The notes beneath the pieces were generated by a model that did not search any database, was not told where the DNA came from, and was given only the letters and a program-made list of their open reading frames with translations. The position numbers and the translations under genes were made by a program. A DNA stretch of 64,000 nt from Candidatus Hydrogenedentota bacterium (GTDB taxonomy: Bacteria > Hydrogenedentota > Hydrogenedentia > Hydrogenedentales > SLHB01). Positions within the stretch are counted from its first letter, which is position 1, and every line of letters begins with the position of its first letter. The stretch lies in assembly GCA_963745075.1 (NCBI GenBank), contig CAVUWV010000014.1:34900-98899 (forward strand). Direction: 5' to 3'. Positions 10,840-42,183 of the stretch are shown piece after piece.

Positions 10840-10914
10840 GTGCGATCCCCCGGATTTCGACACGATGACTTTGTAGCAGCAGAGGCGCCTGTGACTGCCC
10901 CTCCCGCGCATAGG

Positions 10915-11673
10915 TCAATGTCGACCGTCCTCTTCTTCTGCTTGCGCTGTCCGGGCTTGTTCGGCCCCGGCTGCGTCGGGTCGCCGCTCGCCATACCGAA
11001 CGTCCAGCCCTTCCCGCCGCTGGATGGATTTCCGTCCACCCAATGCCATTCGCGCCATAGTCCCGAGGATCTCGCGCGCCGAGTGGGCGCGGAGTTTTCG
11101 GCCGGACGTCGTCACGTACTCGCGCAGGACGACAAACCGGCCGTGACGGCGCAGCGCCCAGCTCATGGCGGCTTCTTCGGCGGCGAAGAGGCGCTCGTCG
11201 AAGCCGCCGGTCGCGAGGAAAGCGTCGCGGGTGCAGAACAGGAAGCACCCGCTCGCTAGCCTTAGGACGCGGTAAATGGGGACGGCCACTGTCATCATGA
11301 TACGGCCATAGAGGGGCACCGGGCCATCGAGGCGGAACGCGCAGCCGCCGCCCGCCGCGCCCTGACGCATGGCCTCGACCGCCCCACGAACCGCCGCCTC
11401 GGTGACAACGGTGTCCGCATCGACGAAGATGAACATCTCGCCGTTCGCTGCGTGTCCCCCGGCGTTACGGGTCGCCGCGATTTGCCGGCGGTTCACGTGG
11501 ATTACTCGGGCGCCGTGTTCTTCGGCGATCGCGGCCGTGCGATCCGTAGATGCGTCGTCCACGACGAATATTTCGAAAGGCTCCCCCAGCGCACGCGCAG
11601 CCACATCGAGCGCGTTCAACGTGCGACCGAGGAGCTGCTCCTCGTTATGGGCGGGGATGACGAAGGAAATCAT
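10915..11673 (-). CDS. Family-2 glycosyltransferase
   Basis: ISFVIPAHNEE, VVDDASTDRT and FVDADT (DxD) motifs. Confidence 0.9.
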   Translation of the reverse strand: MISFVIPAHNEEQLLGRTLNALDVAARALGEPFEIFVVDDASTDRTAAIAEEHGARVIHVNRRQIAATRNAGGHAANGEMFIFVDADTVVTEAAVRGAVEAMRQGAAGGGCAFRLDGPVPLYGRIMMTVAVPIYRVLRLASGCFLFCTRDAFLATGGFDERLFAAEEAAMSWALRRHGRFVVLREYVTTSGRKLRAHSAREILGTMARMALGGRKSIQRREGLDVRYGERRPDAAGAEQARTAQAEEEDGRH

Positions 11674-11810
11674 GACGATTCGCTACCAATCCTTGTTCTT
11701 GGCGAACGATACCGACTTGCTTCTCTCTGTCGTCCTTTGGATGTCTCAACACGTCATTATATCTTTAGCGACAGATGGAAGCGGCGTTGAGCCGCTGAAA
11801 TGGCCTTAAA

Positions 11811-12060
11811 GGCCTGCGTACCCATAGCTCCGGCTTGGCCGAGGCGAAGCGAGGACTAGCCGGGGTCCCAGAGTCCAATCACGTCGTGATTCCCTGAAAG
11901 GGATACATAGTGCGCGGGATTCTATGTAACCCTTACAGGGTATTGGGAATCAGGGGATTTTGACCCAGGGTAGGCCTTGCTGCGCGGCGGCCAATCACGC
12001 TTGCGGCGTGACTGTGAGTATTTTGGCCCTTCAGGCCACCGTGAGTCACATCGTCGACGA
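11811..12060. repeat. Intergenic hairpin-repeat cluster (same dispersed family)
   Basis: TCCCTGAAAGGGA, CCCTTACAGGG and GGCCCTTCAGGCC hairpins. The block 11930-11972 is homologous to 10159-10202. Confidence 0.7.
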
Positions 12061-27043: not shown

Positions 27044-27223
27044 CGGCATCCCACCGCACGGTTGCGGTCTGGTTCGGACTTGTCAAGGGCGTCGGCCAAT
27101 GAGTTGAGATCCATACAGGATATGGAGACCTACACGCGAATTGAGATTGATAAGAAAGAACGAAGTGTGCGTGAGCGTAATGCGGGCTACTGGGCGCGGG
27201 ATTCGGTCGAGTGATTCTTACCC

Positions 27224-27316
27224 CACGGGAGACAGCAGCGAAAGAAAACTTAGAATTTGCTGGATCAACTGGATTAGCTGCAAAAGCTGACTTAAACTTT
27301 GTAACAAGCCGAAGAT
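27224..27316 (+). pseudogene. Decayed homologue of island ORF 35684..35851 (remnant of a second related element)
   Basis: Codon-colinear with 35756..35851 without indels, but carries 4 in-frame stops (tag, tag, taa, taa) where the island copy has cag, gag, cag, gaa. Confidence 0.8.
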
Positions 27317-27380
27317 CGTGGGCATATGATGGTCTCCTTTAGTTGGCCGCTCAAGTCACATACAAGTCGCATACATTTCT

Positions 27381-27422
27381 AAAATAGTACAGCGACTTAC
27401 AGGTAATTTCTGTAAGTCGCTG
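27381..27422 (-). terminator. Hairpin plus T-run downstream of the displaced tRNA 3' fragment
   Basis: CAGCGACTTACAG-7 nt-CTGTAAGTCGCTG followed on the minus strand by TACTATTTT. Confidence 0.45.
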
Positions 27423-27439
27423 TTATCATTTAACTTAAA

Positions 27440-27486
27440 TGGTCGGGGTGAGAGGATTTGAACCTCCGGCCTCTTCGTCCCGAACG
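27440..27486 (-). repeat. att direct repeat, distal copy (3' 47 nt of tRNA-Pro, no 5' half)
   Basis: 47/47 identical to 35976..36022. Flanking bases differ on both sides. Confidence 0.95.
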
Positions 27487-27616
27487 GATTTTTGCCGTGT
27501 AACGCGGTAGATTCTAATCCGGCCTTTCGAGGCAAATACCCCACAAAACCCCTGTAAACATTGGCTATCCGAAATTCATGCTTTTCTTTCGTCTTACACC
27601 GTGATACAATGCCGTT

Positions 27617-27635
27617 GGGTCACATACGGGTCACA
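27617..27635 (+). promoter_or_regulatory. GGTCACA-N4-GGTCACA direct repeats just upstream of int (candidate arm-type or operator site)
   Basis: GGGTCACATACGGGTCACA lies 32 nt before the int ATG. The first 17 nt are identical at 35887. A degenerate copy lies at 27353. Confidence 0.4.
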
Positions 27636-27666
27636 AAAGCGCACGCGCGATAGGGGAGCGATACAG

Positions 27667-28935
27667 ATGAAGGGAAAGTTGACGGCAAAGGACATGCCGA
27701 AGTACAAACCCCAGGCGGAACCCTTCGAGGTGAACGATACAGAGCTGAAAGGATTTTGCCTTCGCGTCATGCCGACCGGGGGGGCCACCTACTATTATCG
27801 CTATCGACTCCCGAACGGTACGCGGGGCCGTGTGAAGATTGGAAGCGCGGCGGCGCTGACACCGGCGGAAGCACGCGCGGAAGCCGTCCAGAAAGCCGCA
27901 GACGCAGCAAAGGGCATCGACCCCGGCCTAGACCGTAAGAAAGCCGCACCGTTGACGCTGGGGGCCTTCGTGGAGGATGAATACGATCCCCTGTGGCTAC
28001 GCTCGAAGCGAACCGGCGCGGCTACGCTCCGAAACATGAAATCGGCATTCGCAAGCCTTTGGAACCTTCCCTTGCAGGAAGTCACACCGGGCCGTGTAGA
28101 GAAATGGCGAGCGGCCATGATAGCGGGCGGCGCGAAGCCTACCACGGCAAACCGCTACCTTGACGATCTGCGGTCCTGTCTGTCCCGCGCGGTTGAGTGG
28201 GATCGCGTACCGTCGCATCCTATCGCCAAAACCAAGCGGCTGAAATTCGACCGGGCACCCAAAGTGCGATATCTGGACACCGACGAGGAAAAGGCACTGC
28301 TAAAGGCGCTGGACACCCGCGAGGAAGAAATGCGGAAACGGCGGACAACCTACAACAAGTGGCGGCTAGAACGTCACTATGTCGAATTGACGGACTTGCG
28401 CAAGCTGGCCTATGCCGACTACCTGAAACCCATGGTTATCGTGTCCATGAATACCGGCCTCCGGCGCGGCGAAGTGTTCAACCTGCGATGGGAAGATGTT
28501 GACCTTGACGGGGGCACGTTGACGGTATCGGGCCACGGGGCGAAGTCAGGACAGACGCGGCATGTCCCGCTGAATTCGATTGCACGGGCCACGCTCGAAA
28601 CGTGGAAGGATCAAGTACCTCCGCATGGCTACGTGTTCGCCAGTGCGAACGGGGGCCGTCTGGATAACGTCAAAACCTCATGGGAAGGGCTGATAGAGAA
28701 GTCGGGGATCAAGAATTTCCGCTGGCATGACCTCCGGCACCATTTCGCGTCAAGGCTGGTTATGGCGGGCGTGGACTTGAACACCGTGCGGGAACTGTTA
28801 GGGCACTCCGATTTGACCATGACGTTGCGGTACGCGCACTTGGCACCGGAGCACAAGTCCGAAGCCGTTGAACGAATCGCGGAACCACGGGACGCGAAAG
28901 TTGTGCGATTCCCGAGGAAGAAATGCAGCAAGTGA
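27667..28935 (+). CDS. int: Tyrosine integrase, P4-like (N-terminal arm-binding DUF4102-type domain)
   Basis: GGGGAG RBS then ATG at 27667. N-terminal FEVNDTELKGFCLRVMPTGGATYYYRY pattern. Catalytic RRGE, HDLRHHFAS and LGHSDLTMTLRYAH motifs. Confidence 0.95.
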   Translation: MKGKLTAKDMPKYKPQAEPFEVNDTELKGFCLRVMPTGGATYYYRYRLPNGTRGRVKIGSAAALTPAEARAEAVQKAADAAKGIDPGLDRKKAAPLTLGAFVEDEYDPLWLRSKRTGAATLRNMKSAFASLWNLPLQEVTPGRVEKWRAAMIAGGAKPTTANRYLDDLRSCLSRAVEWDRVPSHPIAKTKRLKFDRAPKVRYLDTDEEKALLKALDTREEEMRKRRTTYNKWRLERHYVELTDLRKLAYADYLKPMVIVSMNTGLRRGEVFNLRWEDVDLDGGTLTVSGHGAKSGQTRHVPLNSIARATLETWKDQVPPHGYVFASANGGRLDNVKTSWEGLIEKSGIKNFRWHDLRHHFASRLVMAGVDLNTVRELLGHSDLTMTLRYAHLAPEHKSEAVERIAEPRDAKVVRFPRKKCSK

Positions 28936-29052
28936 ATTTGAATGCGGAGGATTGGGTATTCTCCAATTCCGGGGACTAGGTTCGCTACCGAAAACCGCGA
29001 CCTTGGCGGCTGTCCCCGGATTCATCACAAGGGCGATTAAAGGAATCGCATC

Positions 29053-29406
29053 ATGCCGAAGAAATCCGATCCCGTCGAAACATGGCTTGCCGAAGTCCAT
29101 ACAATTGCGGAAATGTTCATTCGCTTGGACACCAAAACCACGGCGGGCGATCTGTCTGAAATTCAACAAGCGGCCAAGTCTGCAAGGCGAGCGTTGCAAT
29201 CCATCGAGAACGTGCGGCGCTACCGGGCCGACGGGGATACGGACAACGCGATCCTCGCGGCGGGACAAGTGGAGCGATTCAATTCGTCCATGGGCGCGGC
29301 ACTAAGCGCACCGAACCTCAATCTGAGGCGTAAAAGTGGCGCAAGGCCACCCGGAAAGTCTGAAGAAGCGCACGGATCTAAAAGAGAAGCGCCGCAAGAC
29401 TATTGA
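29053..29406 (+). CDS. Island hypothetical protein (117 aa)
   Basis: ATG after TAAAGGAA. Helical composition. The 3' end overlaps the next ORF in another frame, so the true end is uncertain. Confidence 0.5.
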   Translation: MPKKSDPVETWLAEVHTIAEMFIRLDTKTTAGDLSEIQQAAKSARRALQSIENVRRYRADGDTDNAILAAGQVERFNSSMGAALSAPNLNLRRKSGARPPGKSEEAHGSKREAPQDY

Positions 29407-29608
29407 CAGTGAGATCACGTCACGGTGGAATACCGGCCTAACGCAAGAACAAATTGCCAAGGCGATTGAAAAGAAGTATCACAAAGAAAGCGACGACGAC
29501 GAAGTCCAACTCCGGGACGGTTTCGACAGCCGCACGATTGAAAAGCGAATTACGGAACTCAAGAAACAAGGCGCACTGACAAAGCAACAAAAACCGAAAA
29601 AGGCCTAA
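29336..29608 (+). CDS. Lys/Arg-rich small HTH-like protein
   Basis: GTG start. WNTGLTQEQIAKAIEKK resembles a sigma-region-4 / HTH segment. Basic tail. Confidence 0.5.
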   Translation: MAQGHPESLKKRTDLKEKRRKTIDSEITSRWNTGLTQEQIAKAIEKKYHKESDDDEVQLRDGFDSRTIEKRITELKKQGALTKQQKPKKA

Positions 29609-29728
29609 TGGGTTTTTTGCGCAATTTCTCGCCACGAATTCCCGCCTTTTACTAGGAAATACACAGAATTTCCTACCGCAACCTTCGTACCTTCTTAAAC
29701 AATAAAGACGAGAAGGAGGCACGAAGAA

Positions 29729-29946
29729 ATGCCCACACTGGAAACCCGAATCGACTGCTCGATCCTAAAAGCGCGGCGTATTACATCGGCATGAGCGCGT
29801 CCTTCCTCGCGAACGCGCGGTGTCAAGGCAACCTCGCGGGCCGCACCCCGGCGCCCCCTTACCTCAAAATTGGGCGCACCGTCCGCTATGACGTTGCAGC
29901 CTTGGATAAATGGATTAACGAACGGGCGCAAGAATGCACCCGATAA
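29729..29946 (+). pseudogene. AlpA/excisionase-family HTH protein, apparent -1 frame break near 29755
   Basis: AAGGAGG plus ATG at 29729 opens a 21-codon frame. The HTH frame (LLDPKSAAYYIGMSASFL..YLKIGRTVRYDVAALDKWINER, 29755..29946) has no canonical start of its own upstream of the helix. Confidence 0.7.
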
Positions 29947-29972
29947 CTTGACCACCTGAAAGGATTCACAGA

Positions 29973-30179
29973 ATGGCGACTGCAACAAAGAAACGAGAAA
30001 CCGCAGACCAGGCGCGGGCGCGGATTCGCGCGAAGTTCCCGGACCTTGCAATTTCGGACGTAGTAGACCCAATCGAACGCGACCCGATGCGCGGGTTTTC
30101 CAGTCACCGGCATTTCTTCGGCGCGGTCATGGCAACCCCCGCCGGACTTCCCCGACAGAATCGAGCAATGCGCAAATGA
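29973..30179 (+). CDS. Small protein upstream of the capsid gene (possibly its N-terminal part)
   Basis: 68 aa. Its stop overlaps the next ATG (ATGA). FSSHRHFFGAVMA resembles N-terminal segments of some HK97-type capsid proteins. Confidence 0.5.
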   Translation: MATATKKRETADQARARIRAKFPDLAISDVVDPIERDPMRGFSSHRHFFGAVMATPAGLPRQNRAMRK

Positions 30180-31162
30180 AAAAGTATGCGCGGTTTCTTC
30201 GAGTGAACGGCATCGAACTCAGACTGAAAGCCACGGCGGGATCAGACGAACAGAGCACGTTCGCGGACCCCTACGGCGGCGCCCTTGTCCCTGGCGGGAT
30301 TCTCTCTGCGGATATTCTCGGCACCGGCTCAACATCCGATCCGTTGGCGGGTAGAACCCGGCGCTTTCCCGATGGATACCCGCACCCTGCGAATGGCCTA
30401 CCGCGTAGACAAGGACCACAGCGATTCGGTTTCGGGTGGCACCGTTTGGACGAGGCGCGAAGAGGCGGCTGATATCGCCGACGGTCGTGTTGAGATCGGC
30501 CAATTTCGTTTGGAAGCGTATGCACTCATTGGGCTGAACTTCACGACGAACGAACTTCTTCACGACTCCCCGAGGGCGGTTGCTTCGCTGGTTGCCTCCG
30601 GCTTTCAGACCGAACTCGGATCGCGGCTGCGTGAGATGAACGGCTGAACGGCACCGGCGTTGGCGAATTCGCGGGCATCAACAATTCCCCGGCAATGATC
30701 ACCGTTGAACCGGAAACCGGACAGGCAGCGGACAGCATCGTCTTTGAGAACGTAGTGAACATGCAGGGCCGAATGTGGGGCCAAGGGATTTGGCTTGCGA
30801 ACCCCGACACGCGCGTCTCGCTACTGTCAATCAACAAGGCCGTGGGCTTTCCGGTCTTCGTACCGCGTACCGCTGAAGATGAACCCGACATGCTGCTCGG
30901 CTTCCCGCTGTATTTCAGCGAGCATTGCGAGACGTTGGGCGATGCCGGAGATATCCTGTGCATCAATCCCGCCGAATACTTGGAAGGCGTCTACGAACCC
31001 CTACAGAGCGCGGAAAGCCTTTTCGTTCGCTTTGAATCCCACGAAAACTGTTTCAAGTTCTGGACCAGGAATGCAGGCGCACCCTGGTGGGATGCCGCGT
31101 TGACGCCAAAGAAAGGCGCGAACACTCTAAGCCCATTCGTTCGCTTGGCGGCGCGGGCCTAA
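30176..31162 (+). pseudogene. HK97-family major capsid protein, readable only by joining frames 2 -> 0 -> 2
   Basis: KATAGSDEQSTFADPYGGALVP.. (frame 2), then FPMDTRTLRMAYRVD..GGTVWT..EAYALIGLNFTTNELLHDSP (frame 0), then DERLNGTGVGEFAGINNSPAMITV.. to the end (frame 2). Breaks lie near 30363-30372 and 30630-30640. Confidence 0.8.
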
Positions 31163-31381
31163 CATGCGCGGTATTCTCCGATGGATTCTCAATCTACTCG
31201 CAGCGGATGAACCCGAACCGGCGCGGCGTGTGCTTCACGATTTCCGCATGTGGGAACCGATGGGCACCGAACCGCGCGACGAGGGTATCCACTGCGGCAA
31301 TGTGTCTTCCTCCGAACCCGGCCACGGGGCGCGGCATTGGGTATCGACTCCACCTGATGCCGTGCCCCCGGACGCGGGAGA

Positions 31382-32919
31382 ATGGCGGGGGCCGCGATGA
31401 ACACGGCCACGATACGGCGCAACGGGCACGCTCCTTCCGAAGCGACTATCGCGGCGTGCAAGGCGTTGCTCGGGAGCGCAATCAAAGGCGATGCCGATGC
31501 GGCGCGGGAAATCGCGGCAATACCTTCCCAAGCCTGGCCGGATAAGACGATGCGCGAAGCGGCGCGGCATATCATCGAACTCACGGCGGACGGCGCGGCG
31601 TTGGAACTCCCGATCCTTCTACACCGGCTGGCCGTAGGCGGGAAAGTGAGCACCGGCGACGTTTCGGCACTCACGAAGGCATCACCTGTCTACGATACGG
31701 AGGCCGTTGGCGACATCATTCGCACGACTACCGAGAGCGCGAAGGGCGGCATCTGGCGGACCTGCGGGCCAAGGGCGCTATTTCGGATACGGACCTTCGG
31801 CAAGCACTCGCGGAACTGGACACACACGAAACGGCCGGCAAGACTCCGGCGCTATCCCCGGTTGATACGGCGGAATGGCTCACCGGGGAACCACGGTCTA
31901 TTGAGTACCTATACGACGGGACTATCGCGCGGCGTTCGCTTGTCCTGCTTACGGGTCAGGGTGGAATAGGGAAAAGCGGCGTACTGCTCGTTATTGTGAC
32001 ATCCGGTTGCATTGGGCGGGCGTTGCTCCCTGCGTTTCGACCTGCGGGCCGGTTGCGCGTGCTGTGGCTCTGCTCTGAGGATGACGCAGAGGAAGTCTGG
32101 CGGCGTTGGGCGCGGTTGTCCGAAGCCTACGGACTGAGCGACGAGGATCGCGCGGCCTTCGCGGAGAACCTGCGGTTGTACTGCAACCCCGGTATTCCGT
32201 TGATGGACTCCACAGGACGGATGACGGACGCATACAAGTGGCTTCGCGCGGAAGTTGAATCGTTCAAGCCAGACCTTGTTTGCGTCGATCCGCTATGCCA
32301 TTTCCATCAGTTTGATGAAAACAGTAATGCTGAAATGGCCATCTTTATGTCTCGGTTGCGTGACTTGAGCACGCCACACGGCGCGGCGATATTGGCCGTC
32401 CATCACGTGCCGAAGGATAGAGAGAAGGAAGCAAAGTCGGCGGCGGCGCGTGGGGCTTCATCCATTCGCGACAGTGCAAGGTGCATGTTCGGAATTGTTG
32501 AATTGAACGAAAAGGAAGTCACGGACTACGGCATATCGAACCCCCGGCTATTCGCGCGGCTGGAACACTCCAAGGCGTCATGGACTCCGCTGTCTGACCG
32601 GGCCGTGTTCCTTCGGAATCAGGACGGCGTGTGGTTTGAATGTGACCTGACCGGACAGCGGGAGGAAGCGCAGCGGGAAATACCACCCGCATGGCGCGGC
32701 GAATCGGGGAACTGCTCGCCACGGATTCCGAAGGAACCTATACCCGGAGGGAATTGCAAAGCAACCCTGCGGCGCATGGATTCGCGAGCGGCTGGAATCC
32801 GGAATTCGGTACCAATGCGAACCGGACAACCTACTCTGGATGCTGTCAATCACGGCGTCAAAACCGGCGTGCTTTTGAAGAAGAAATCAAGCAAAAAGGA
32901 CGGCCACGAAGCGTTATAA
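31382..32919 (+). pseudogene. Replication protein: DnaB-N-like domain plus RecA-fold ATPase (RepA / AAA_25-like), frame-disrupted
   Basis: N-terminal domain is in frame 2. From about 31745 the sense continues in frame 1 (RHLADLRAKG..LLTGQGGIGKS Walker A, DLVCVDPL Walker B, AVHHVPKD). A possible further out-of-frame wHTH segment lies at 32691-32790. Confidence 0.7.
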
Positions 32920-32924
32920 CGGGC

Positions 32925-33146
32925 CTGTCCGAAACTCTTGCGGACAAGCGGACAGAGGCGGACAGCGGCGATCTGTCCGAAATTCCAACACCATGAGCAC
33001 TAAGGACTTAGATACTACCCATCGAATTACGGACAAGCGGACAGACAACCTTGAATTGTCCGTAATTCGTAAGTCCTTGCGGCACAATAACTTTGAATTA
33101 CGGACAGGCGAGCCTCAAGGGGGAGAAAAAACGCTGTCCGAAACTC
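32925..33146. repeat. Iteron field (candidate replication origin or operator array)
   Basis: 10 copies of CGGACA/TGTCCG at 32926, 32941, 32949, 32959, 32974, 33030, 33038, 33057, 33101 and 33135. Longer units CTGTCCGAAAYT x3 and GAATTACGGACA in both orientations. Confidence 0.8.
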
Positions 33147-33265
33147 CGCGTTTTTCTTCCCCCACCGGTTATTGGGCGGCGGCGCGGCGGACCTATCGAA
33201 TCAGTTGCGGAAATCATGCCAAGGGTTATCACCTTCACGGACACGGAACAAAAGGAGTCGGCAGC

Positions 33266-33523
33266 ATGAACACGATAGAAATACTTGAACGGGCAAACGA
33301 ACTACTCGGGGCGGAACTGGCCGGCAAAGATCAGGCCAGCACACCGACTACCGCAAGGATATCGAGACAGCAATGTACGTGGTTTGGTCTATGCGCGAAC
33401 GGGAGCGGTACGCGGTGGGCAGCATTGCGGCTCATAACAGCAACGCCCCGTCATGAGCACACGAACCACACGGGCGATCCGCTACACATGCCGTCCACCA
33501 TGCAGCTACGCGGGGCATATTGA
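33266..33523 (+). CDS. Small island ORF, 3' half doubtful
   Basis: AAAGGAG RBS then ATG at 33266 (MNTIEILERANELLGAELAG). An alternative frame ends at 33456 in an ATGA junction with the next gene, so the true 3' end is unclear. Confidence 0.35.
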   Translation: MNTIEILERANELLGAELAGKDQASTPTTARISRQQCTWFGLCANGSGTRWAALRLITATPRHEHTNHTGDPLHMPSTMQLRGAY

Positions 33524-33635
33524 CAAGCCACGGGGCAACGAACCCCTGCAACGGGGCAGAGCGTACTGTCCGCAATGCGGCGCGTTGCTCTATCCCGAGG
33601 ATGTTCGGGTACTGGCGAAGGAGCAAGCACAATGA
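33453..33635 (+). CDS. Zinc-ribbon miniprotein (60 aa)
   Basis: C..C....CPQC pattern. ATGA junction with the next ORF. Confidence 0.55.
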   Translation: MSTRTTRAIRYTCRPPCSYAGHIDKPRGNEPLQRGRAYCPQCGALLYPEDVRVLAKEQAQ

Positions 33636-33835
33636 GCTATATAGGCGTCAAATACCATTGTTGTGCGCATGATTGCCGTTACGAGTTTCGCGAGACCGTG
33701 AACCCACCGGGCTGCACGACGGCCAAGCGAAAGCCTATCGCAGTGCGCGAAGACTATCGCTGTCCTGAATGCGGGCATCCGATGGGCTGGACGTTGACTG
33801 TAGACCATTGGGACGACGACGGAAGCGAGGGGTGA
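33632..33835 (+). CDS. Zinc-ribbon miniprotein (67 aa)
   Basis: HCCAHDC....CPECGH pattern. ATG at 33632 overlaps the upstream stop. Confidence 0.55.
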   Translation: MSYIGVKYHCCAHDCRYEFRETVNPPGCTTAKRKPIAVREDYRCPECGHPMGWTLTVDHWDDDGSEG

Positions 33836-33874
33836 AGCAGATGTTTCCAAAAAAAATAGGGGGGAGGGGGTAGC

Positions 33875-34202
33875 GTGAGCAAGGCATGGGCAGACCTTGA
33901 ACGCGACACGGCAGAAGCCTTGGGCGGCGTCCGTATCAAGCGCGACCTATTCCAGAGCGAGGCCGACGTGTGGCTATCGGACTTCGCAATGGTCTATCGA
34001 CTGCAAGCGGCACAAACGTTGGGCGTTCCATACCCTACTCGATACCGTCAAGCGGAAGTACGGCGGCACAGCGATCCTTGTCACGCGAAGCCACGGCGGG
34101 CGGACCTACGCGACGCTCCCGCTTGAAACCTTCGCGGCGCTGCTCGGGGAAGTACGGGCGGCGCGGCGGACCACGACGAGCACGACGAGGCGGACAGGAT
34201 GA
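33875..34202 (+). pseudogene. PD-(D/E)xK-like nuclease (Hjc / VRR-NUC-like), +1 frame break near 33995
   Basis: Joining the two frames gives SEADVWLSDFAMV + IDCKRHKRWAFHTLLDTVKRKYGGTAILVTRSHG, a D...(I)DxK nuclease-core pattern. Confidence 0.4.
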
Positions 34203-34424
34203 GGCACACACGCAAGCCTTGCGAATTGCGAATCGTTTCATGTGCATCGAAGTACACGAACGGACAAGCAACGCGACAACGGGCCGTGGGCGCTTCCTAC
34301 GGGCGCGGCGGACACCCCATACCGTATAGAGGGGGTCAAGGCTCCAGACGCCAGACGTAGACCACGTCGCGCGCCACGCGCTTGCGTATGTGTACCCCGT
34401 TGTCGAAAAAGTGAGGATTGAGCG

Positions 34425-34892
34425 ATGAACGAACCAAAACCCCCGGCGCACCTGTCCAGAGCAAGCAAAGCATGGTGGAAAGAGATCGTATCCGGTTACG
34501 AATTGGACTCGCATCATTTGAAACTGCTCGAAGGCGCGGCGGTTCAATGGGACAGAGCGACCGAAGCACGAGAGGCTATCGAGCGCGACGGCGTGAGCAC
34601 GGTAGACCGTTGGGGACAAGTGAAAGCGCACCCGGCGGTAGAGATAGAACGGCAAGCTATGACGTTGTTCGCGCGTCTGGTGCGGGAATTGGCGCTTGAT
34701 GTTGATCCCCTGGCGAAGTTGGATGGCCGCCCAGTATCGGCGCGAACGCAGGACGGAGGCGGTAGAAATGCCACGCAAACGGCTACGCTCGAAATCACGA
34801 CGGGCACCCGCGTTGGGCGAATTCAATCTGTACCTTGCCGTGCGGCGTTTCGTTGCCTTCGAGGATACCGAAGCGCAGCGGGCCGGACTTGA
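34425..34892 (+). CDS. Phage small terminase subunit, P27 family (3' end uncertain)
   Basis: PAHLSRASKAWWKEIVSGYELDSHHLKLLEGAAVQWDRATEAREAIERDG..NPA-like core matches the P27-family TerS pattern. The last ~40 codons overlap the next well-supported gene. Confidence 0.7.
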   Translation: MNEPKPPAHLSRASKAWWKEIVSGYELDSHHLKLLEGAAVQWDRATEAREAIERDGVSTVDRWGQVKAHPAVEIERQAMTLFARLVRELALDVDPLAKLDGRPVSARTQDGGGRNATQTATLEITTGTRVGRIQSVPCRAAFRCLRGYRSAAGRT

Positions 34893-35160
34893 CGCGACTC
34901 GCGATTCATGGGAACCGTGGGCAGCACAGATTATCGAAGCACACGCGGCGCGGTCTACCGGTTGTCGCCCGTCGTTTTGGTGGCACTTCGATTGCCCGAG
35001 GGAGCATCGGCACATGGGCACGGTCTACCCGTACACCCTGGCGCATTTCCGCGAACGGTTGGAACTGCTCGAAAGCATGAACGCGCTACAACCCGGCGAG
35101 CGCGAAGCGTTGGAAAGCTGGATTCACGAAAGGGAACAACATGCCACGGGTACGGCGTAA
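34768..35160 (+). CDS. Island protein, paralogue A (MPRKRLRSKSRR...RPSFWWHFDCP)
   Basis: GGAGG RBS 9 nt upstream of ATG at 34768. Shares N-terminal basic motif and RPSxFW motif with the next ORF. Confidence 0.65.
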   Translation: MPRKRLRSKSRRAPALGEFNLYLAVRRFVAFEDTEAQRAGLDATRDSWEPWAAQIIEAHAARSTGCRPSFWWHFDCPREHRHMGTVYPYTLAHFRERLELLESMNALQPGEREALESWIHEREQHATGTA

Positions 35161-35479
35161 ATCAAAAGCACGAAGCACGGAGCGGCTATCCGATTTCGAG
35201 GTAATGCGCGTCGGCAAGTTGGGCGGCGAATTCCTTCGCAAGTATGCGCGGTATTGGCCGGCACACGGCGAAGAGTGGACACGGATGCAAGGGCACGATC
35301 ACCCCGGCACGCGGCCTTCACTGTTTTGGGAACTCGATCACCCGGAACTTATGGGCGAAGTAGCGGAGCTTGGCGAAACCGAGACACTACGGCGGCACGG
35401 ACTTTTGACGGACTATGAAATTGCGAGTTTTGAACGGCGCGAGAGGTTTGCGCAAAAGGGGAGCGACACGGATGAGTAA
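35141..35479 (+). CDS. Island protein, paralogue B (MPRVRRKSKARS...RPSLFWELDHP)
   Basis: 112-aa ORF overlapping the upstream stop region. Motif sharing with 34768..35160. Confidence 0.65.
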   Translation: MPRVRRKSKARSTERLSDFEVMRVGKLGGEFLRKYARYWPAHGEEWTRMQGHDHPGTRPSLFWELDHPELMGEVAELGETETLRRHGLLTDYEIASFERRERFAQKGSDTDE

Positions 35480-35687
35480 ACCATCGGCGGAATTTGTAGA
35501 ACGGCAGGACAAACTCGAATCTGCGGTATCGGCGGCATTCCTTGCCGTGGGCGCACACCCCGAGGAGGCATGGTGGAACCGGGCTTGTAATTCCGCAATC
35601 AGGGAAGCGACCCGAAACGGTCTGTTATGCGTTGCGGACACCCCACGGCGGACGGCGGACCCGGACCCGGACTATTTCGGCGGATGA
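35472..35687 (+). CDS. Small island protein (71 aa)
   Basis: ATG at 35472 overlaps the upstream stop. Its stop overlaps the next ATG (ATGA). Confidence 0.5.
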   Translation: MSKPSAEFVERQDKLESAVSAAFLAVGAHPEEAWWNRACNSAIREATRNGLLCVADTPRRTADPDPDYFGG

Positions 35688-35851
35688 TTCCCTTGGCAAC
35701 ATCGGGATCGCGGCGTGTGGGGCATCCTGGCGCGGCGGGCTACCGATTCCTACCTCACGGGCGACAGCAACGAGAGGAAACTCAGAAGCTGTTGAATCAA
35801 TTGGATGAGCTGCAAGAATTGGCTCAGACTTTGGAACAAGGCGAGGATTGA
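35684..35851 (+). CDS. Small coiled-coil protein (55 aa), last gene of the island
   Basis: ATGA-coupled start. C-terminus QKLLNQLDELQELAQTLEQGED. A decayed homologue exists at 27224..27316. Confidence 0.5.
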   Translation: MIPLATSGSRRVGHPGAAGYRFLPHGRQQREETQKLLNQLDELQELAQTLEQGED

Positions 35852-35886
35852 GGGCATCGGATAGATTCCTTTTGGTTTGGCTTCTC

Positions 35887-35905
35887 GGGTCACATACGGG
35901 TCATA
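35887..35905 (+). promoter_or_regulatory. GGTCACA-N4-GGTCATA repeat near the tRNA-proximal att
   Basis: GGGTCACATACGGGTCATA lies 70 nt from the att core. The first 17 nt are identical to 27617..27633. Confidence 0.4.
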
Positions 35906-35924
35906 ACGTATACTAGACATAATA

Positions 35925-35958
35925 CAGGGACTTACGCTAGCTATTTCGTAAGTCCCTG
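35925..35958 (-). terminator. Hairpin immediately 3' of tRNA-Pro (element-supplied terminator-like structure)
   Basis: CAGGGACTTACG-10 nt-CGTAAGTCCCTG. Same position and architecture as the hairpin at 27390..27422. Confidence 0.4.
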
Positions 35959-35975
35959 ATTTCATTAGATTTAAC

Positions 35976-36053
35976 TGGTCGGGGTGAGAGGATTTGAACC
36001 TCCGGCCTCTTCGTCCCGAACGAAGCGCGCTAACCGGGCTGCGCTACACCCCG
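35976..36053 (-). tRNA. tRNA-Pro (anticodon CGG), CCA encoded
   Basis: Manual cloverleaf: acceptor CGGGGTG/CACCCCG, D stem GCGC/GCGC, anticodon stem CTTCG/CGAAG with loop TTCGGGA, T stem GGAGG/CCTCT with loop TTCAAAT, discriminator A plus CCA. 78 nt. Confidence 0.95.
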
Positions 36054-36174
36054 ACAGAACGCGTATGGTACCGCGCCGCAGTGGGATGTGTCAAATTGAA
36101 GGACCGGCTGGAGGCTTCAGGTTGATAAGGCCGCGATCATTTCCTTCGAACCCGCCTGGTGTGGAAACCGGCCG

Positions 36175-37476
36175 TTACAAATCGGGAGAAACCTCGCCTT
36201 TCGTCCGCCCCAGTTTCCGCCGGATGCGTTCGAGGCGGTGGTGGAAGGCGGTGAGGGGAGTGGCTTCGAATTCCGTGGCGCGGCCCAGGGTGGCACGGGT
36301 TTCGAGGTATTCGATGGCTTCGACGCACATCCGTTCTGCGTCGGGTAGCCGGCGCGCTCGGTGCTCGTAATGCTTGGCGAGTTCAAGCCGCGCAAGGAGG
36401 TTGGTCGGGTTTTCCTGCAACAGCAGCGCGTAGCTACCCTCCATGCGTTGCCAGTCGCTCAGACGTTTCGCGGCGAGGGCGATGTATTCGAGGCATTCCT
36501 TGCGCAACTCGCCCTGTTCTTCGATTTCCAGCAGTTGTTCGCCTTGGACGATCGCGTGTTCGTACTTCTTCTGCAAGAAGAAGACGCGCACCATAGACAG
36601 CCGGTCCTCCGCGTGCTCGAATCCCGTACCGTCCGGACTTGAAAGGCACCGCGATAGCCACGCCGTCAGGGCCACCAGCGAGAGAATGTCCATTTTGTGG
36701 TGGTAGAAGACCCCATCAAGGCGCCGCGCGTCGCGCGTGCGGATATAGTCGAACCACATCTGCGGGATCTCGTAGCTGGGCACGTCTCCGTGGCGTTCGA
36801 TGCCGAGGATCATGCGCTCCACGTTGGTCAGGTTGCAGGCCCCCAAGCGGCGTTTCCAGAAGCGTCGCGCCGCGTGCAGGAGATCGAAGTGCATGATACT
36901 GTCGGCGCGAAAGGGAATGCGGTTCTGGATGAACCGAGTGCGGAGCAGCGGTAGATCAAAACTCTTGCCGTTGTAACTGACGACGGCTTTCTTCTCCTTG
37001 AACACCTCGGCCAAGTATTCAAGCATAGGCTCTTCGTCATCGTAATCGCGCATGAAACACTGGTCGAGGCGAAATCCATCGTCTACGAAGTAGCCCACGC
37101 CGATGAGGAAGGCGACGGTTCCCGTGCCGCCGGACAGGCCGCTGGTTTCGGTGTCGATAAAGAGGGCTTTCCGCGGATCGAATTCACATAGTTCATCGTC
37201 CGACGCAGACAAGGCAATGTGTTCGCCGCATACGTCCAGCACGGACCGCAAGGCGATCGCGCCTTGATGCGTGTCGAGGGGGAAGGTCTCCTGCACGAGG
37301 TAGAAACCGAGATCGTTGTCGCCGACAACCTGGCCGGGGACAACCTTGTCAATCTCAAAATCGCCGGACTCGCGTTGCTTCCGCAGATCGTCCAGCTTCT
37401 GGACCCAATCCGAGCCCCGCATGAGTCCGGGCTTCCCCGCGAGGAGTCCGTCGAGTTTGTCCTTCATGCCGGACAT
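36175..37476 (-). CDS. YprB/MrfB-like RNase-H-fold (DnaQ-like) exonuclease with C-terminal TPR-like region
   Basis: MSGMKDKLDGLL start. ALFIDTETSGL (Exo I), SYNGKSFDLPLL and HHKMDILSL motifs. The track ORF extends to 37629, but that extra N-terminus looks non-genic. Confidence 0.8.
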   Translation of the reverse strand: MSGMKDKLDGLLAGKPGLMRGSDWVQKLDDLRKQRESGDFEIDKVVPGQVVGDNDLGFYLVQETFPLDTHQGAIALRSVLDVCGEHIALSASDDELCEFDPRKALFIDTETSGLSGGTGTVAFLIGVGYFVDDGFRLDQCFMRDYDDEEPMLEYLAEVFKEKKAVVSYNGKSFDLPLLRTRFIQNRIPFRADSIMHFDLLHAARRFWKRRLGACNLTNVERMILGIERHGDVPSYEIPQMWFDYIRTRDARRLDGVFYHHKMDILSLVALTAWLSRCLSSPDGTGFEHAEDRLSMVRVFFLQKKYEHAIVQGEQLLEIEEQGELRKECLEYIALAAKRLSDWQRMEGSYALLLQENPTNLLARLELAKHYEHRARRLPDAERMCVEAIEYLETRATLGRATEFEATPLTAFHHRLERIRRKLGRTKGEVSPDL

Positions 37477-37574
37477 GGAATGCTTGCCTTTTGGGTCGAT
37501 GTCGGTGCGCCGACGCCACGAGTCAAAGAGGCCGATAGTATCAGCAATTGAGTTTTCGCAAACTGAGTTCCTAG

Positions 37575-37627
37575 ATTTTGGCCCGAAGGGCCGTAACATG
37601 ACAGCCCAGCGCGGCATAGCCGCAACC
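37575..37627. repeat. Dispersed repeat copy (hairpin GGCCCGAAGGGCC plus inverted 25-mer)
   Basis: 37603..37627 is the reverse complement of 10399..10423 with one mismatch. A hairpin is adjacent in both copies. Confidence 0.8.
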
Positions 37628-37709
37628 AAAAGTGAGGAGATGAATGGCGTTTCCCCTTTGCAGATACAATAGGTATCCGCAGTGGTCTAACACGAGAAGG
37701 AGAAACGCC

Positions 37710-39257
37710 ATGCTTGAGTTTATGCAGAAGTACCGGGATAAAGCCAGTTCGATTCTGAGCGGTTTTGATCGAATCGTCTTTCGAGGGCTTTTGCGGTCTA
37801 TAGTCCATCCAGACGGCATGAAAAGGCACTTGTCGCGGTGTGACGTTCCCCGCCGCAACTTCGGAGCCCATGTGGAGGAGACGACCAAGAAACTGAAAAA
37901 GGCCTCGTTGGCTCAGGCTGAACATCTGGATAGACCGGTCATCTACGTGCAATCGAGTCAAACCCGTAAGGAGACTATCGCCAGACAGGTACTCGCGGAG
38001 AATCCCGTCGATTCCGGTTTGCTGTGCGTGCTTTCTTGTGTGGAGCCCTGCATGACCTACGAGATGTATCGCAATCGGGAGGCCAAGAAACTGGAACTCG
38101 TCTATCGTCTGCGTAAGTGTCTCCACTTGTATCATTACTACGTCGATCCTCTGTTCGGCTTCATGCATGCCCGCATCCAAACCTGGTATCCCTTTCACGT
38201 CCAAGTCTGTGTGAATGGACGGGAATGGCTGGCTCGGCGAATGGATGCCGAAGGTTGCAAATACATCCGCTACGAGAACAGTTTCCCGCATCTAGAGGAC
38301 CCGGAGCGCGCCCAGCAATTGCTCGATGAACTGGTCCGTCTCAACTGGACCGAAACCCTTCACGAAATCGCCGCGCGGTTGAATCCTGCGCATCAAGAGA
38401 TCCTCGGTCCCTATGCCCGCTACTACTGGACCGCTCACCAAACCGAATGGGCCACGGACATCACGTTTACCTCGGCCCAAGACCTCCAAGATATCTATCC
38501 TCAACTTGTCTGGGGCGCCATCACCACCTTTTCCACACGGCATGTCATGCGCTTTTTGGGCAAACAATTCCAACGCCACTTTGCCGGCGAAGTCCAGAGC
38601 CATTATCACGACCGTCTCGACGGCCTCTCCGTCAAACATGCCGTCAACAACAATTCCGTCAAGATGTATGACAAAGGGGCCCAAATCCTTCGCATCGAAA
38701 CCACCATCAACAACCCCCACGACATCCCGGTCTACCGGCCCAAGGAAGGCGGTGACCCCAAAGACTTGGCTCACCGTTCCATGCGCAAAGGCGTAGCCAA
38801 TCTCGAACGGCGCACGCAGGTCTCTCAACGCGCCAACGAACGCTACCTCGAAGCCCTGACACCATTCGATACCTCCACTCCCTTGGCACAACTCCTCGCC
38901 CCCGTCACCAAAAGGGTCACCAAAAAAGGAACGACCTATCGCGGCCTGCGGCCTTGGGCACACCAAGACCTCGAACTTCTGCAAACCATCAACAAACCCG
39001 AGTTTCTCATCGCAGGCTTCCGCAACAAGGACCTGTCCGCCATCCTTTATCCCAAGGATTAGGGCGACCTCCGTGCCCGACGCGCCGCCTCCGGTCGCGT
39101 CTCCTATCGCCTACGGCTTCTCCGAGCCCACGGTCTTATTGCCAAAACATCACGCACCCGTCGCTACCAAATCACCACCAAAGGAACTCAACTATGCGCA
39201 GCCATACTCATGGCCCAACACGCAACTATCCAACAACTTACCCCCAAGGCCGCTTAG
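37710..39257 (+). pseudogene. Conserved hypothetical protein (possibly transposase-like) with C-terminal winged-helix; interrupted by in-frame TAG at 39060
   Basis: AAGGAG RBS then ATG at 37710. 450 codons, TAG, then 64 further sense codons in the same frame (RVSYRLRLLRAHGLIAKTSRTRRYQITTKG) ending at TAG 39255-39257. Confidence 0.7.
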
Positions 39258-39269
39258 ACAAATGCGAAA

Positions 39270-39495
39270 GTTTTTTACGATGTTTGCGGTTAGGGACCCA
39301 GGGCAACGCCCTGGGAAAATGGTGCGACCAATACGTTTTAGCCCTGAAAGGGCGAAACAAGAACAAAGAGAATAAGAGCTGTTACGCCCCTTCAGGGCTT
39401 GTGTTCTATATGCTGGCTCGTTCCCAGGGCGTTGCCCTGAGCTATCTTGTTGCGGCCCCTTCGGGGCGATGCAATGCGCCAAGTGTAACCCTGCC
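39270..39495. repeat. Intergenic hairpin-repeat cluster (same dispersed family)
   Basis: ACCCAGGGCAACGCCCTGGG, AGCCCTGAAAGGGC, GCCCCTTCAGGGC, CCCAGGGCGTTGCCCTG and GGCCCCTTCGGGGC hairpins in series. Confidence 0.75.
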
Positions 39496-39914: not shown

Positions 39915-42183
39915 TTATAAAGCCAACCGCGCCAGCTTCAGCGCGCCCTTCTTGCCTTTGGCACCGACTTCGAGGCCGGGGCCGACGCAACTGGGACATC
40001 CTTCCTTGCAATTGCACCCGCTGATGAGCGAGATGGCTGCTTCGAGCAATTGCCGGTGGTGGGTGAATAGCTTCTCGCTGAACCCGACGCCGCCGGGATA
40101 GGTCTCATACAAGTATACCGTGGGCCGTTCGGAGAAGGGCGCGCGCAACATGCCCAAGGCGCGGATATCCGTCGGGTCGCACAGCACCTGCACCGGCGCG
40201 ACCTGCCGCAAGGTGTTGGCGAGCCCGTGCAAGGCTTCGCCCAATTCCTGCTGCTTCATTTCGAGGGTTTCGGCCACGTCTTCGGGAAATTCGATCCAGT
40301 ACCCGGTCGTGTGCATCGTGGATTCGGGCAGCGCGATCTCACCCCAGCCGACGTTCTCATGCGTGCCGAACTTGATCTTCTTATAGACGCTCGGTAGCCA
40401 CGTCACGCTGACTTCACCGGTCCGTTTCGTCGCGTCGCCGACGGCCTCCTCACGGAAGGTGTCCAGGACTTTAAGATCTACCTTGATCTGCGCGTCTGTG
40501 TAGTAGTCCACGTCCACGGGCCGCGCGTAGGCTTTGCGGTCCTCCAGGTCGAGTTTATCGATGGTGTACTGTGCGCTTTGGTGGAGGTAGATTGCGTTCT
40601 GATAGACCTCCGTCGGCGCGGCGAACAAGTCGATCTCGCCGATGACGCGGCCGTTCTGCGACGTGTCGAGGATGACCACGTTTCCCGGCGCGGCCGTGCG
40701 CAGGCTGATGTCCTCGGCGGGATACGAGTCCGCGCTCCAATGCCACTTGTCCCGCACATGCCGCAACACGCGTTGCTCGGCGAGGTACTCGAGGATCTCG
40801 CCCGTCGATGCCGGCGTCCATGCCGAAAGCTTCGCCGTCCTTGAATGGGATCTCGAAGGCGGCACACTTCAGGTGACTCGTCATGATGATCAGGTTGTTC
40901 GGATCGACGGTCGCGCTTTCCGGGGTCTGTTCGAAGAAATACTCGGGATGGTTGATGATGTACTGGTCCAACGGCGCGCTCGACGCAACCAGGATGACCA
41001 GCGACGTGCCGGATCGCCGTCCGGCGCGCCCGGCCTGCTGCCAGGTGCTGGCGACGCTGCCCGAGTATCCCGTCATGATGCACACATCCAGCGACCCGAT
41101 GTCGATGCCCAGTTCCAGCGCGTTCGTGCTGACCACGGCCATGATTTCGCCGTCCCGTAAACCCTTCTCAATGGCGCGCCGTTCGGTGGGCAGATAGCCG
41201 CCGCGATAGCCGCGCACGAGATTGTGGTCCTTGCCCATTTTGCGTACGGCTTCTTTGAGGTAGGTGGTCAGGATCTCGACGCGCAACCGGCTTCGCGCGA
41301 ACACAATCGATTGAACGTTGCGGGACAGCATCTGCGTGGCCAGGCGGTTCGCTTCCTTCACCGACGACAGCCGGATGCCCAGTTCCGCGTTGACTACCGG
41401 CGGGTTGTAGAAAAGGAAATGCCGCTCGCCCGTGGGTGCGCCGTTTTTGTCCACGAGTTTGACGGGGGCTTCGATGATGCGTTCGGCCATTTCCTGCGGG
41501 TTGTTGATGGTCGCACTGCAACAGATGAAGGTGGGATTGGACCCGTAGAACTCGCAAATCCTTTTCAGCCGCCGAATCACATTGGCCAAATGGCTGCCGA
41601 AGACACCCCGGTAATGGTGCAACTCGTCGATCACCACGAACTCGAGATTCTCGAAGAGTTTCATCCAGATGGTGTGATGGGGGAGGATGCCCGAATGCAG
41701 CATGTCCGGGTTGGTCACGACAATATGTCCGGCGTTCCGAATCGCTTTGCGCGCCGAGCCGGGCGTGTCCCCGTCGAAGGTGTACGTGCCGATTTTCACT
41801 TCCAGGTCGTCGATGGTTGTCTTCAATTCGTTGACCTGATCCTGGGATAGGGCCTTGGTCGGGAATAGATACAGGGCCCGGGCATCCGGGTTCGCCATCA
41901 AGCGGTTCAACACCGGCACGTTGTAGCAGAGGGTCTTTCCCGAAGCGGTCGGCGTGACGATGCAGACATGGGAGCCCGAAAGCACCGAATTCACGGCCTC
42001 GCGTTGATGCGTATAGAGGTGATGGATCCCACGTTTTCCGAACGCATCCACGAGCTTGGGATTTAACCCCTCAGGAAAATCCGCATACTGTGGCGGCCGG
42101 GCCGGGACCACCTTCCAGGCAGTTTGGTTACGACGGATCTCCGGGTCCGAGCGAAGGCGGTCAACAATCTGTGCAACGTTCAT
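39915..42183 (-). pseudogene. MrfA/YprA-like DEAD/DEAH-box helicase with DUF1998 (zinc-binding) C-terminal domain, +1 frame break near 40800-40825
   Basis: TPTASGKT, VIDELHHY and QQAGRAGR helicase motifs in ORF 40555..42183. The C-terminal part continues in ORF 39915..40865 (STGEILEYL...CNCKEGCPSCVGP). The tails of both track ORFs in the overlap are nonsense. Confidence 0.85.

Follow-up and report, generated by a model that had tools for sequence, protein, structure and literature searches.

In a 64-kb stretch of DNA (hereafter the window), probably from a member of Candidatus Hydrogenedentota, the segment at 27440-36022 is best read as a phage satellite of the phage-inducible chromosomal island (PICI) type, inserted in the 3′ end of a tRNA-Pro(CGG) gene and probably intact in this copy or intact until recently, a reading to which we assign a probability of roughly 0.62. 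It is a satellite rather than the remnant of a prophage, and it is of a known kind, with a new lineage and some new parts. In the published design of Gram-negative PICIs, int and alpA are accompanied by a replicase with a 3′ origin (two iteron sets and an AT-rich stretch), and transcription runs rightward; capsid-morphogenesis genes are present, with terS in some, and PmCI172 carries both a capsid homologue and a small terminase (TerS) (PMC6092414). The PICI model of SatelliteFinder uses the same five components and forbids portal, connector, tail and holin genes (PMC10085698). The window element has an integrase gene at one end, flanking direct repeats, an AlpA gene, an iteron origin 3′ of its replicase gene and unidirectional transcription, together with capsid and TerS genes whose role is predicted, and no portal, head-tail connector, tail or holin gene was found among the element's open reading frames (ORFs) searched with Pfam and PHROGs. 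A preliminary description of the same DNA had called the element a satellite and not a prophage, a view that its gene set, its relatives and its non-phage gene order support; the further suggestion of an undescribed satellite family went too far, since the design is that of the published Gram-negative PICIs (PMC6092414, PMC10085698).

The limits of the element are set by the tRNA gene, which is the single ARAGORN call in the window and is also called by Rfam (65.7 bits). Its 3′-terminal 47 nt recur exactly 8.5 kb away at the other end, as the preliminary description had reported and as ARAGORN and repeat analysis confirmed, and similarity continues more weakly for 28 nt outward from the 47-bp core (75 nt at 91%). 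The intact P4-type integrase gene adjoins attL, and the 64 kb hold just three copies of the motif GTCACATAC, all at the element ends; this arrangement points to the tRNA core as the integration site and to candidate arm-type sites beside it. On the minus strand, a hairpin at 35925-35960 directly follows the 3′ end of tRNA-Pro and may serve as its terminator. Outside attL, a 227-bp stretch (27213-27439) is 88.8% identical to the right end in L264, a second assembly of this locus (ENA ERZ25039549 contig_52488, corresponding to window 27487-39300 and found by exact-protein look-up); the corresponding figure for the right end of L004, a related element bracketed by the identical 47-bp core, is 90.7%. 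This stretch carries one GTCACATAC arm-type motif (27355) and a hairpin, and appears to be left over from an earlier or tandem copy of the element. L004 has an equivalent remnant left of its own attL (7102-7271), small ORF g63 included. A 10,166-bp Logan contig (L005) was considered as a possible excised circle and set aside: both of its ends break inside the 47-bp core, as any repeat longer than k would cause, so that it is uninformative.

Table 1. Features of the satellite element and its ends (window coordinates).
Feature	Position	Strand	Evidence
Putative right-end remnant of an earlier or tandem copy, outside the element	27213-27439	.	similarity to L264 and L004 right ends
attL core, copy of the 47-bp tRNA-Pro 3′ end	27440-27486	.	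exact repeat of 35976-36022
Candidate integrase arm-type site GGGTCACATACGGGTCACAA	27617-27636	+	95% identical to 35887-35906
Tyrosine integrase, P4-type, 422 aa, intact in this assembly	27667-28935	+	Pfam Arm-DNA-bind_3 and Phage_integrase
int-alpA RNA motif, Rfam RF02996	28969-29033	+	50 bits against a gathering score of 35.8, full model, E = 3e-8
Regulator-like gene(s), 117-aa and 90-aa ORFs, overlapping, in different frames	29053-29608	+	relation to L004 p208
alpA, excisionase/activator, 72 aa	29729-29946	+	HTH_17, PHROG 66
HK97-fold major capsid protein homologue, ~390 aa, without N-terminal delta/scaffolding domain	29973-31162	+	PF05065
rep, RepA-like (AAA_25, RecA-fold) replicative helicase, ~533 aa, C-terminal winged-helix-like tail	31397-32996	+	
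Replication origin: two iteron sets, AT-richer segments, then a GC-rich hairpin	32926-33165	.	iteron count, GC content, fold
Conserved small ORF or DNA block 'GGPIESVAEIMPRV' just past the origin	33093-33269	+	55% identity to L001 p72
Three small ORFs (33266-33523, 33453-33635, 33632-33835)	33266-33835	+	two with CxxC...CxxC zinc-ribbon-like motifs
Small nuclease-like protein, 109 aa	33875-34202	+	PHROG 244
terS, short P27-family small terminase, 113 aa	34425-34765	+	Terminase_4
MPR-family protein 1, 130 aa, MPRKRLRSKSRR...CRPSFWWHFDCP, partner of the satellite TerS	34768-35160	+	68% identical to L001 p130
MPR-family protein 2, 112 aa, paralogue of MPR protein 1	35141-35479	+	alignment A3; MPR profile E = 5e-22
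Small ORF related to L007 p75	35472-35687	+	tblastn 32% identity over 56 aa; same gene order in L007
Right arm: g63-like ORF fragment, arm-type site 35887-35906, hairpin 35925-35960	35792-35975	.	
tRNA-Pro(CGG); its 3′ 47 nt (35976-36022) form the attR core	35976-36053	-	ARAGORN, Rfam

A scan of GTDB species genomes and IMG/VR with the capsid alignment returned ~130 loci, nearly all in the canonical TerS-TerL-portal-protease-capsid order (TerL, large terminase), with a few small tRNA-bounded islands among them. L004 is an intact 10.2-kb element in the same tRNA-Pro, in a Candidatus Hydrogenedentota genome (GCA_045863335.1), and is ordered int, a 208-aa protein, AlpA, Rep, a 157-aa protein, TerS, an 83-aa protein, a 450-aa capsid, a 237-aa protein, a small ORF and an ERCC4 nuclease. 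Identity to the window element is 88% for both integrase and Rep, and the flanking host genes are 86% identical. L001/L007 is a 15.3-kb tRNA-Arg element without TerL or tail genes, ordered int, capsid (392 aa), portal, S49 protease, AlpA, PrimPol/D5 primase, ERCC4, TerS, p130, p68, p75 and further ORFs before host genes. L058, in Rhodoferax, is a 9.6-kb island between 48-bp tRNA-Val repeats; L047, in Dehalococcoidia, is an 8.8-kb island between 38-bp tRNA-Phe repeats; and L142 is an 11.5-kb IMG/VR contig with the same satellite logic. All five have the same restricted gene set, intact and outside any full-length prophage, with no TerL or tail gene, and L004, L058, L047 and L142 keep the capsid gene without a portal. 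Two of them have likely accessory cargo near their ends, a SocA_Panacea-domain gene in L004 (16686-17246, minus strand) and a HipA-like kinase with DUF3037 in L047 (7103-8736); the window element has no recognizable cargo.

The integrase matches Arm-DNA-bind_3 and Phage_integrase at E = 6e-32, which confirms the P4-type assignment of the preliminary description, and is 87.6% identical to the L004 integrase (421 aa, single frame). Between int and alpA, the RF02996 motif scores above the Rfam gathering score, matches over the full length of the model and lies at a position equivalent to that in L001 (14121-14186) and L006 (8783-8855), an element with a more distant replicase; the int-alpA RNA of L004 falls below the gathering score. 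In all three elements the next gene 3′ of the motif is a conserved regulator-like one, itself followed by alpA, a placement that suggests a cis-acting leader of a regulator-alpA operon. The motif's presence between int and alpA also looks specific to this lineage, and we found no account of it in the literature. The two overlapping regulator-like ORFs may be a single gene. Residues 34-105 of the 117-aa ORF match L004 p208, which in turn matches L001 p156 (E = 5e-12), and all three proteins are encoded just 5′ of alpA; neither ORF has a Pfam or PHROG match, so that of the basic helix-turn-helix (HTH) protein previously proposed here, the HTH finds no match and what stands is the relation to the protein preceding alpA in sister elements. 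The proposed AlpA/excisionase-like HTH is confirmed by HTH_17 (a weak Pfam match) and the PHROG 66 excisionase, and the product is 68% identical to the HTH71 protein of L004. alpA has a Shine-Dalgarno sequence and an ATG at 29729, and a 1-nt gap at 29745 throws the start codon out of frame here; the L264 allele gives a 72-aa ORF with the start in frame.

Rep matches AAA_25 at E = 2e-20 as found and 9e-33 after frame correction (Pfam), and it has seven matches among 5.8 billion proteins, the best being P0121, in the L004 genome GCA_045863335.1, at 72% identity over the full length and 88% over the core; this intact sister Rep matches the structure of the RSF1010 RepA helicase (1G8Y, E = 2e-12). 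Of the 'DnaB-N plus RecA-fold' architecture first proposed, the RecA fold therefore stands, and DnaB-N finds no match in Pfam. The gene is broken at 31724 and between 32683 and 32876, with four or more sites in all; combining window and L264 alleles rebuilds a 533-aa Rep whose C-terminus then aligns with that of L004. Directly 3′ of rep, 10 copies of the CGGACA/TGTCCG hexamer fall within 32926-33135, where chance predicts 0.27 per 250 bp; this is the highest count in the window, and the iteron field reported earlier is confirmed. GC content falls to 41% and 35% between the iteron sets, compared with 58% for the whole element, and the hairpin 3′ of the iterons folds at -25 kcal/mol. In L004 the same iteron motif stands in the same place, and in L006, where Rep identity is 40%, the iteron differs; because the iteron changes with Rep, Rep-iteron specificity is likely. 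Just past the origin, a conserved block (window 33180-33266, 'GGPIESVxEIxPRV') is kept in L001 (17477-17695), L004 (~11780-11860) and L006 (~11600-11660) despite unrelated replicases, AAA_25 RepA-like in one case and PrimPol/D5 in the other.

Two further genes tie the element to virion packaging. The first encodes an HK97-fold capsid homologue, matching Phage_capsid (PF05065) at E = 8e-11 on the largest fragment and at 2.7e-20 with the full Pfam model once frame-corrected for breaks at ~30145, 30369 and 30629, so that the earlier capsid assignment holds in profile searches. Among its 607 homologues, the best is 59% identical. When 41 capsids were aligned and placed in a neighbour-joining tree, the window and L001 capsids emerged as sisters on long branches adjoining a phage clade, and these two have 35 and 33 residues before the conserved core, compared with 84-114 in the other 39 of 39, where this N-terminal region is a coiled-coil delta/scaffolding domain. 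Because the two delta-less capsids are sisters, the scaffold was lost once, in a satellite capsid lineage. The delta-less capsid looks lineage-specific, and we found no published description of it. Two copies of TGAACGGC at 30637-30652 had been considered an 8-bp tandem duplication and a real mutation; the phage homologue P0001 reads LLDERLNGTG and L264 reads SRLVDERLNGTG here, which makes the repeat native, and the break in this region is the 2-nt insertion at 30629.

The second is terS. Its product matches Terminase_4 at E = 1e-5, above the curated Pfam cut-off, in keeping with the P27-family small terminase proposed earlier, and is 72-79% identical to the L001 TerS; an IMG/VR search with the single TerS protein gave no match. 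A run of four rather than five C residues at 34706 puts the last 20 codons out of frame in the window, and the L264 protein ends ...SIGANAGRRR*, as the L001 TerS does, at 113 aa. The break had also been attributed to a 4-nt deletion near 34733, until the L264 comparison placed it at the C4/C5 run.

Immediately after terS come two genes of a family that we call MPR, with the signature MPRxRRRxKxRR ... PGTRPWAWWxFDAPExRR ... ESExxYLxRhgLL; these are the two paralogous basic proteins of the preliminary description, both now placed in one family. For MPR protein 1, L001 p130 was the sole match among 5.8 billion proteins in a word-indexed search, and the N-terminus of MPR protein 2 is 59% identical to L004 p83. 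A full HMMER scan with the family profile recovered 122 representative clusters; Pfam and PHROG searches were empty, and cluster look-up gave no names. AlphaFold2 predicts an all-helical protein with a mean predicted local distance difference test (pLDDT) score of 82 from 40 sequences (47 from three), and Foldseek comparison of the model with PDB and BFVD returned nothing at E <= 1. An MPR gene directly follows a short TerS gene in the window, L001, L015 and L142, and in L143 lies near a Rep gene; the family is absent from all ~130 canonical phage loci checked. A motif scan of metagenomes yielded 54 MPR loci, and in 36 of the 43 with enough upstream sequence a TerS gene stands immediately upstream on the same strand. 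An integrase accompanies seven of these loci, a replicase or primase five, a portal none and a TerL fragment one, and most have no capsid gene nearby. L196, in which an MPR gene adjoins a TerL fragment, was discounted as a degraded 2-kb contig holding only the last 116 aa of TerL. Tandem MPR paralogues also follow TerS in metagenome loci L228 (2031-3296) and L220, and MPR gene duplication is therefore recurrent.

The TerS-MPR pair looks lineage-specific, with no published description that we could find, and it is the most interesting lead from this element. Tentatively, and with the odds somewhat against the proposal as a whole, TerS and MPR may together form the module with which a large environmental lineage of PICI-type elements, undescribed so far and spread over soil and other metagenomes and several phyla, hijacks packaging, with the delta-less capsid as a second, Ccm-like weapon. 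If so, MPR would be a new kind of TerS partner that recruits or retargets the helper large terminase or blocks the helper TerS, and the delta-less capsid would need the scaffold, protease and portal of a helper to make small heads.

The remaining genes are small. Zinc-ribbon matches among the three ORFs at 33266-33835 are weak (Pfam E = 0.02-0.03), which lends the earlier zinc-ribbon call limited support, and PHROG searches gave these ORFs no function. The nuclease-like protein, previously assigned to the PD-(D/E)xK type, has as its sole match PHROG 244, 'RusA-like Holliday junction resolvase' (E = 1.7e-4), so that the earlier assignment stays weakly supported. A 2-nt gap at 33984 splits the ORF here, the L264 allele being an intact 109-aa ORF, and sister elements have an ERCC4 nuclease in place of the RusA-like one. 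All homology-supported genes lie on the plus strand. The earlier statement that every ORF does so is correct for these genes; a 328-aa minus-strand ORF (34035-35021), not itself searched, lies antisense to terS and the MPR genes.

What the element does not encode separates it from a phage. Profile hidden Markov models built from related loci found no TerL, portal or protease gene in the whole 64 kb, the longest unassigned stretch of the element is too short for TerL or portal, and tblastn with the proteins of phage contig L003 and of L001 recovered only capsid and TerS; the absence of TerL, portal, protease, tail and lysis genes claimed at the outset is thus borne out by Pfam, PHROGs and these profiles. 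That the segment is a deletion remnant of an ordinary full-length prophage is very improbable. Its capsid is indeed 45-60% identical to true-phage capsids in TerS-TerL-portal-protease-capsid modules, and loci L026 and L255 combine related genes with tail genes. However, alpA and rep enclose the capsid gene, and what comes after TerS is MPR, not TerL; the same restricted content recurs in at least five independent elements, within tRNA repeats spaced 8.8-15 kb; both the capsid clade and the TerS-MPR pair are specific to satellites; and replication is plasmid-like (RepA helicase, iterons) with a PICI-like placement. Equally remote is an integrative plasmid-like or defence island that captured phage genes and depends on no helper. 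The RSF1010 RepA type of Rep and the SocA_Panacea and HipA-like cargo of sister elements would suit such an island, but a capsid and a small terminase would have no role outside virion packaging, Pfam and PHROG scans of the element ORFs found no conjugation or mobilization gene, and the PICI architecture is matched feature by feature.

Within the satellites, the window element is composite. Its capsid gene and TerS-MPR-MPR-p75 block are closest to L001/L007 and not to L004, and its Int-AlpA-Rep genes are of L004 type, so that it is a mosaic of two satellite lineages. This recombinant origin leaves room for a reduced derivative of an L001-type capsid-forming satellite, in which the capsid would be a leftover without a role and any spread would proceed by TerS-directed packaging alone: in L001/L007 the portal and S49 protease genes follow the capsid gene, and no capsid gene was seen near most metagenome TerS-MPR loci. 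We consider this improbable, although less so than the prophage and island readings. No remnant of a portal or protease was detected, the capsid frame can be restored without a nonsense codon, the intact L004, L058, L047 and L142 retain a capsid without a portal, and capsid-only satellites work, as SaPIbov5 Ccm and PmCI172 illustrate (PMC8569155, PMC6092414).

Whether this copy is intact turns on its frame breaks. In this assembly ~10 indels interrupt alpA, the capsid gene (three sites), rep (four or more), the nuclease gene and terS, with the integrase and MPR genes open; the disruption of several genes noted previously is thus real in this sequence. One explanation keeps the element a PICI-type satellite and makes this copy a dead fossil, in which real frameshifts have abolished excision, replication and packaging. 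L264 bears directly on it. Across 3.3 kb of host flank the two assemblies differ by two mismatches and no gap (99.94% identity), yet the element itself shows 149 mismatches and 40 gap blocks between them (1.7% divergence), a contrast that in-situ neutral decay cannot explain. L264 carries the frame-preserving allele at nine of the ten window break sites, which are thus private to the window assembly, and has private breaks of its own, including five in int. Single-base changes make up 30 of the 40 indels, and 17 alter the length of a homopolymer; 23 adjoin mismatches, where 8.2 would be expected by chance and 2000 permutations gave at most 16. No corrected reading frame contains an in-frame nonsense codon, and amino-acid identity to L004 (88%) exceeds DNA identity (86%), a sign that selection was purifying for nearly all of the divergence. 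The start of contig_52488 coincides exactly with the core, which suits strain variants and a tandem pair alike. On balance the breaks somewhat favour long-read consensus errors from mixed or tandem near-identical copies; real recent decay is unlikely, if far from negligible, and the fossil reading carries about the same modest weight. The earlier caveat that the element is 'decaying or poorly assembled' accordingly leans toward a poorly assembled or heterogeneous sequence, and the element is probably intact or was so until very recently.

Two observations on assembly quality stand beside these. At window 36002-36015, in the tRNA-Pro/att core, L264 has four clustered substitutions that would break the T stem; they look like a patch of consensus error, which limits trust in either assembly. 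An excess of short tandem duplications within the element was also considered and dropped, only 9 of 28 Tandem Repeats Finder rows lying inside it. Elsewhere in the window, at 10261-10362, a 33-bp tandem repeat (3.1 copies, 97% matches) lies inside the overlapping ORFs 10035-10490 and 10397-10876, neither of which has a Pfam match.

Several points pull against an intact PICI-type satellite, and some of them favour the fossil. The substitutions separating the assemblies look partly real (23 synonymous and 26 non-synonymous, with synonymous changes enriched at 23/49; transitions to transversions 88/63, or 1.4), and therefore two true alleles exist and some indels may be real as well. The capsid break at ~30369 is out of frame in both assemblies. 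The element has some 10 breaks in 8.6 kb, whereas ~55 kb of host sequence has one indel that is confirmed and one further disruption that is possible, and the older-copy remnant beside attL documents that decay does occur at this site. The confirmed host indel is in a DEAD/ResIII/MZB helicase gene (39915-42183, minus strand), split into two ORFs by a 1-nt insertion at ~40814 relative to a 92-93% identical orthologue beside L004, as an assembly error or a real pseudogene. The second may be ORF 55051-55590 (minus strand), which matches only positions 80-132 of the Glycos_transf_2 profile, its N-terminal part missing or in another frame. As for function, a capsid gene by itself, lacking portal or protease, is not enough to build heads; its proposed Ccm-like role is an analogy, and Ccm itself retains the delta domain. 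None of the 80 closest IMG/VR relatives of the capsid is satellite-like. The replicase is a RepA/AAA_25-type helicase and not of the Pri-Rep family of E. coli PICIs, and no helper phage was identified in the window or elsewhere. Finally, the border with defective phages is not sharp: L026, with a related capsid, and L255, with an MPR gene, both have a related TerS and a tape-measure gene. These two loci (L026 8842-14592, in Terriglobia; L255 80-5987) pair a short TerS with the tape-measure gene and no TerL or portal, L026 with a gp10-like head-tail protein and flanking insertion sequences in addition; they may be a different, tail-carrying defective or dependent element and were left out of the count of clean satellites.

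Among known systems, the closest counterparts are PmCI172 of Pasteurella multocida and EcCICFT073 of E. coli, with int at one end, genes in one direction, alpA, a 3′ origin, a capsid homologue and a length of ~9-15 kb, and without portal, tail or lysis genes; TerS is shared with PmCI172. Unlike these Gram-negative PICIs, the window element resides in Hydrogenedentota, with relatives in Chloroflexota and Betaproteobacteria, and combines a RepA/AAA_25 helicase, a delta-less capsid, a TerS-MPR pair and an int-alpA RNA. In SaPIbov5, Ccm is an HK97-fold capsid homologue that occupies the pentamers of small hybrid capsids together with helper proteins (PMC8569155, PMC5052747). SaPIbov5 likewise encodes a capsid homologue without portal or protease, but Ccm keeps an N-terminal delta domain that the window capsid has lost, SaPIbov5 relies on a helper cos site and has no TerS whereas the window element has one, and no close sequence relationship is detectable.

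Capsid-forming PICIs (cfPICIs) are defined by capsid, protease, portal, head-tail connector and adaptor, HNH, TerS and TerL genes (10.1101/2022.09.08.507074, PMC10085698). The window element shares Int, alpA, a replicase, a capsid and a P27-type TerS with cfPICIs of the EcCIEDL933 type, and L001/L007 adds portal and protease; of the full head set, however, the window has only capsid and TerS (no protease, portal, head-tail connector or adaptor, HNH or TerL gene was found there), and L001/L007 has no recognizable TerL, HNH or connectors. [quoted passage not shown] P4-like satellites share tRNA integration, a P4-type integrase, AlpA and a size of ~10 kb; they differ in capsid strategy, and Pfam and PHROG scans of the element ORFs, made without the dedicated SatelliteFinder profiles, gave no match to Sid, Psu, Delta, epsilon or alpha primase.

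By analogy throughout with characterized PICIs, the life cycle of the element may run as follows. An HK97-like helper phage of the TerS-TerL-portal-S49 protease-capsid type would trigger the element, with the int-alpA RNA, the regulator-like gene and alpA acting as its control region. Candidate helper types are HK97-like phages whose capsids are 42-60% identical to that of the window, including L010, on a contig of a Hydrogenedentota metagenome-assembled genome, and phage contig L003. Integrase and AlpA would excise the element at the 47-bp core, and the RepA-like helicase would open the iteron origin 3′ of rep for replication. The short P27-type TerS, with its MPR partner or partners, could then mark satellite DNA and engage the helper large terminase, and the scaffold-less capsid could co-assemble in a Ccm-like manner with helper capsid, portal and protease into small heads suited to 8.6-10 kb, tails and lysis being supplied by the helper.

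To our knowledge, satellites have been studied almost exclusively in Proteobacteria and Firmicutes. With the element described here and its relatives, the PICI design reaches Hydrogenedentota, and Chloroflexota and Betaproteobacteria hold related elements. Where frameshifts cluster in mobile elements from long-read metagenomes, mixed or tandem copies can be the cause, which calls for a check of the reads before pseudogenes are declared. The MPR family offers a possible marker for finding many more satellites in metagenomes, and a satellite capsid clade without a scaffolding domain of its own provides a natural experiment in capsid assembly.

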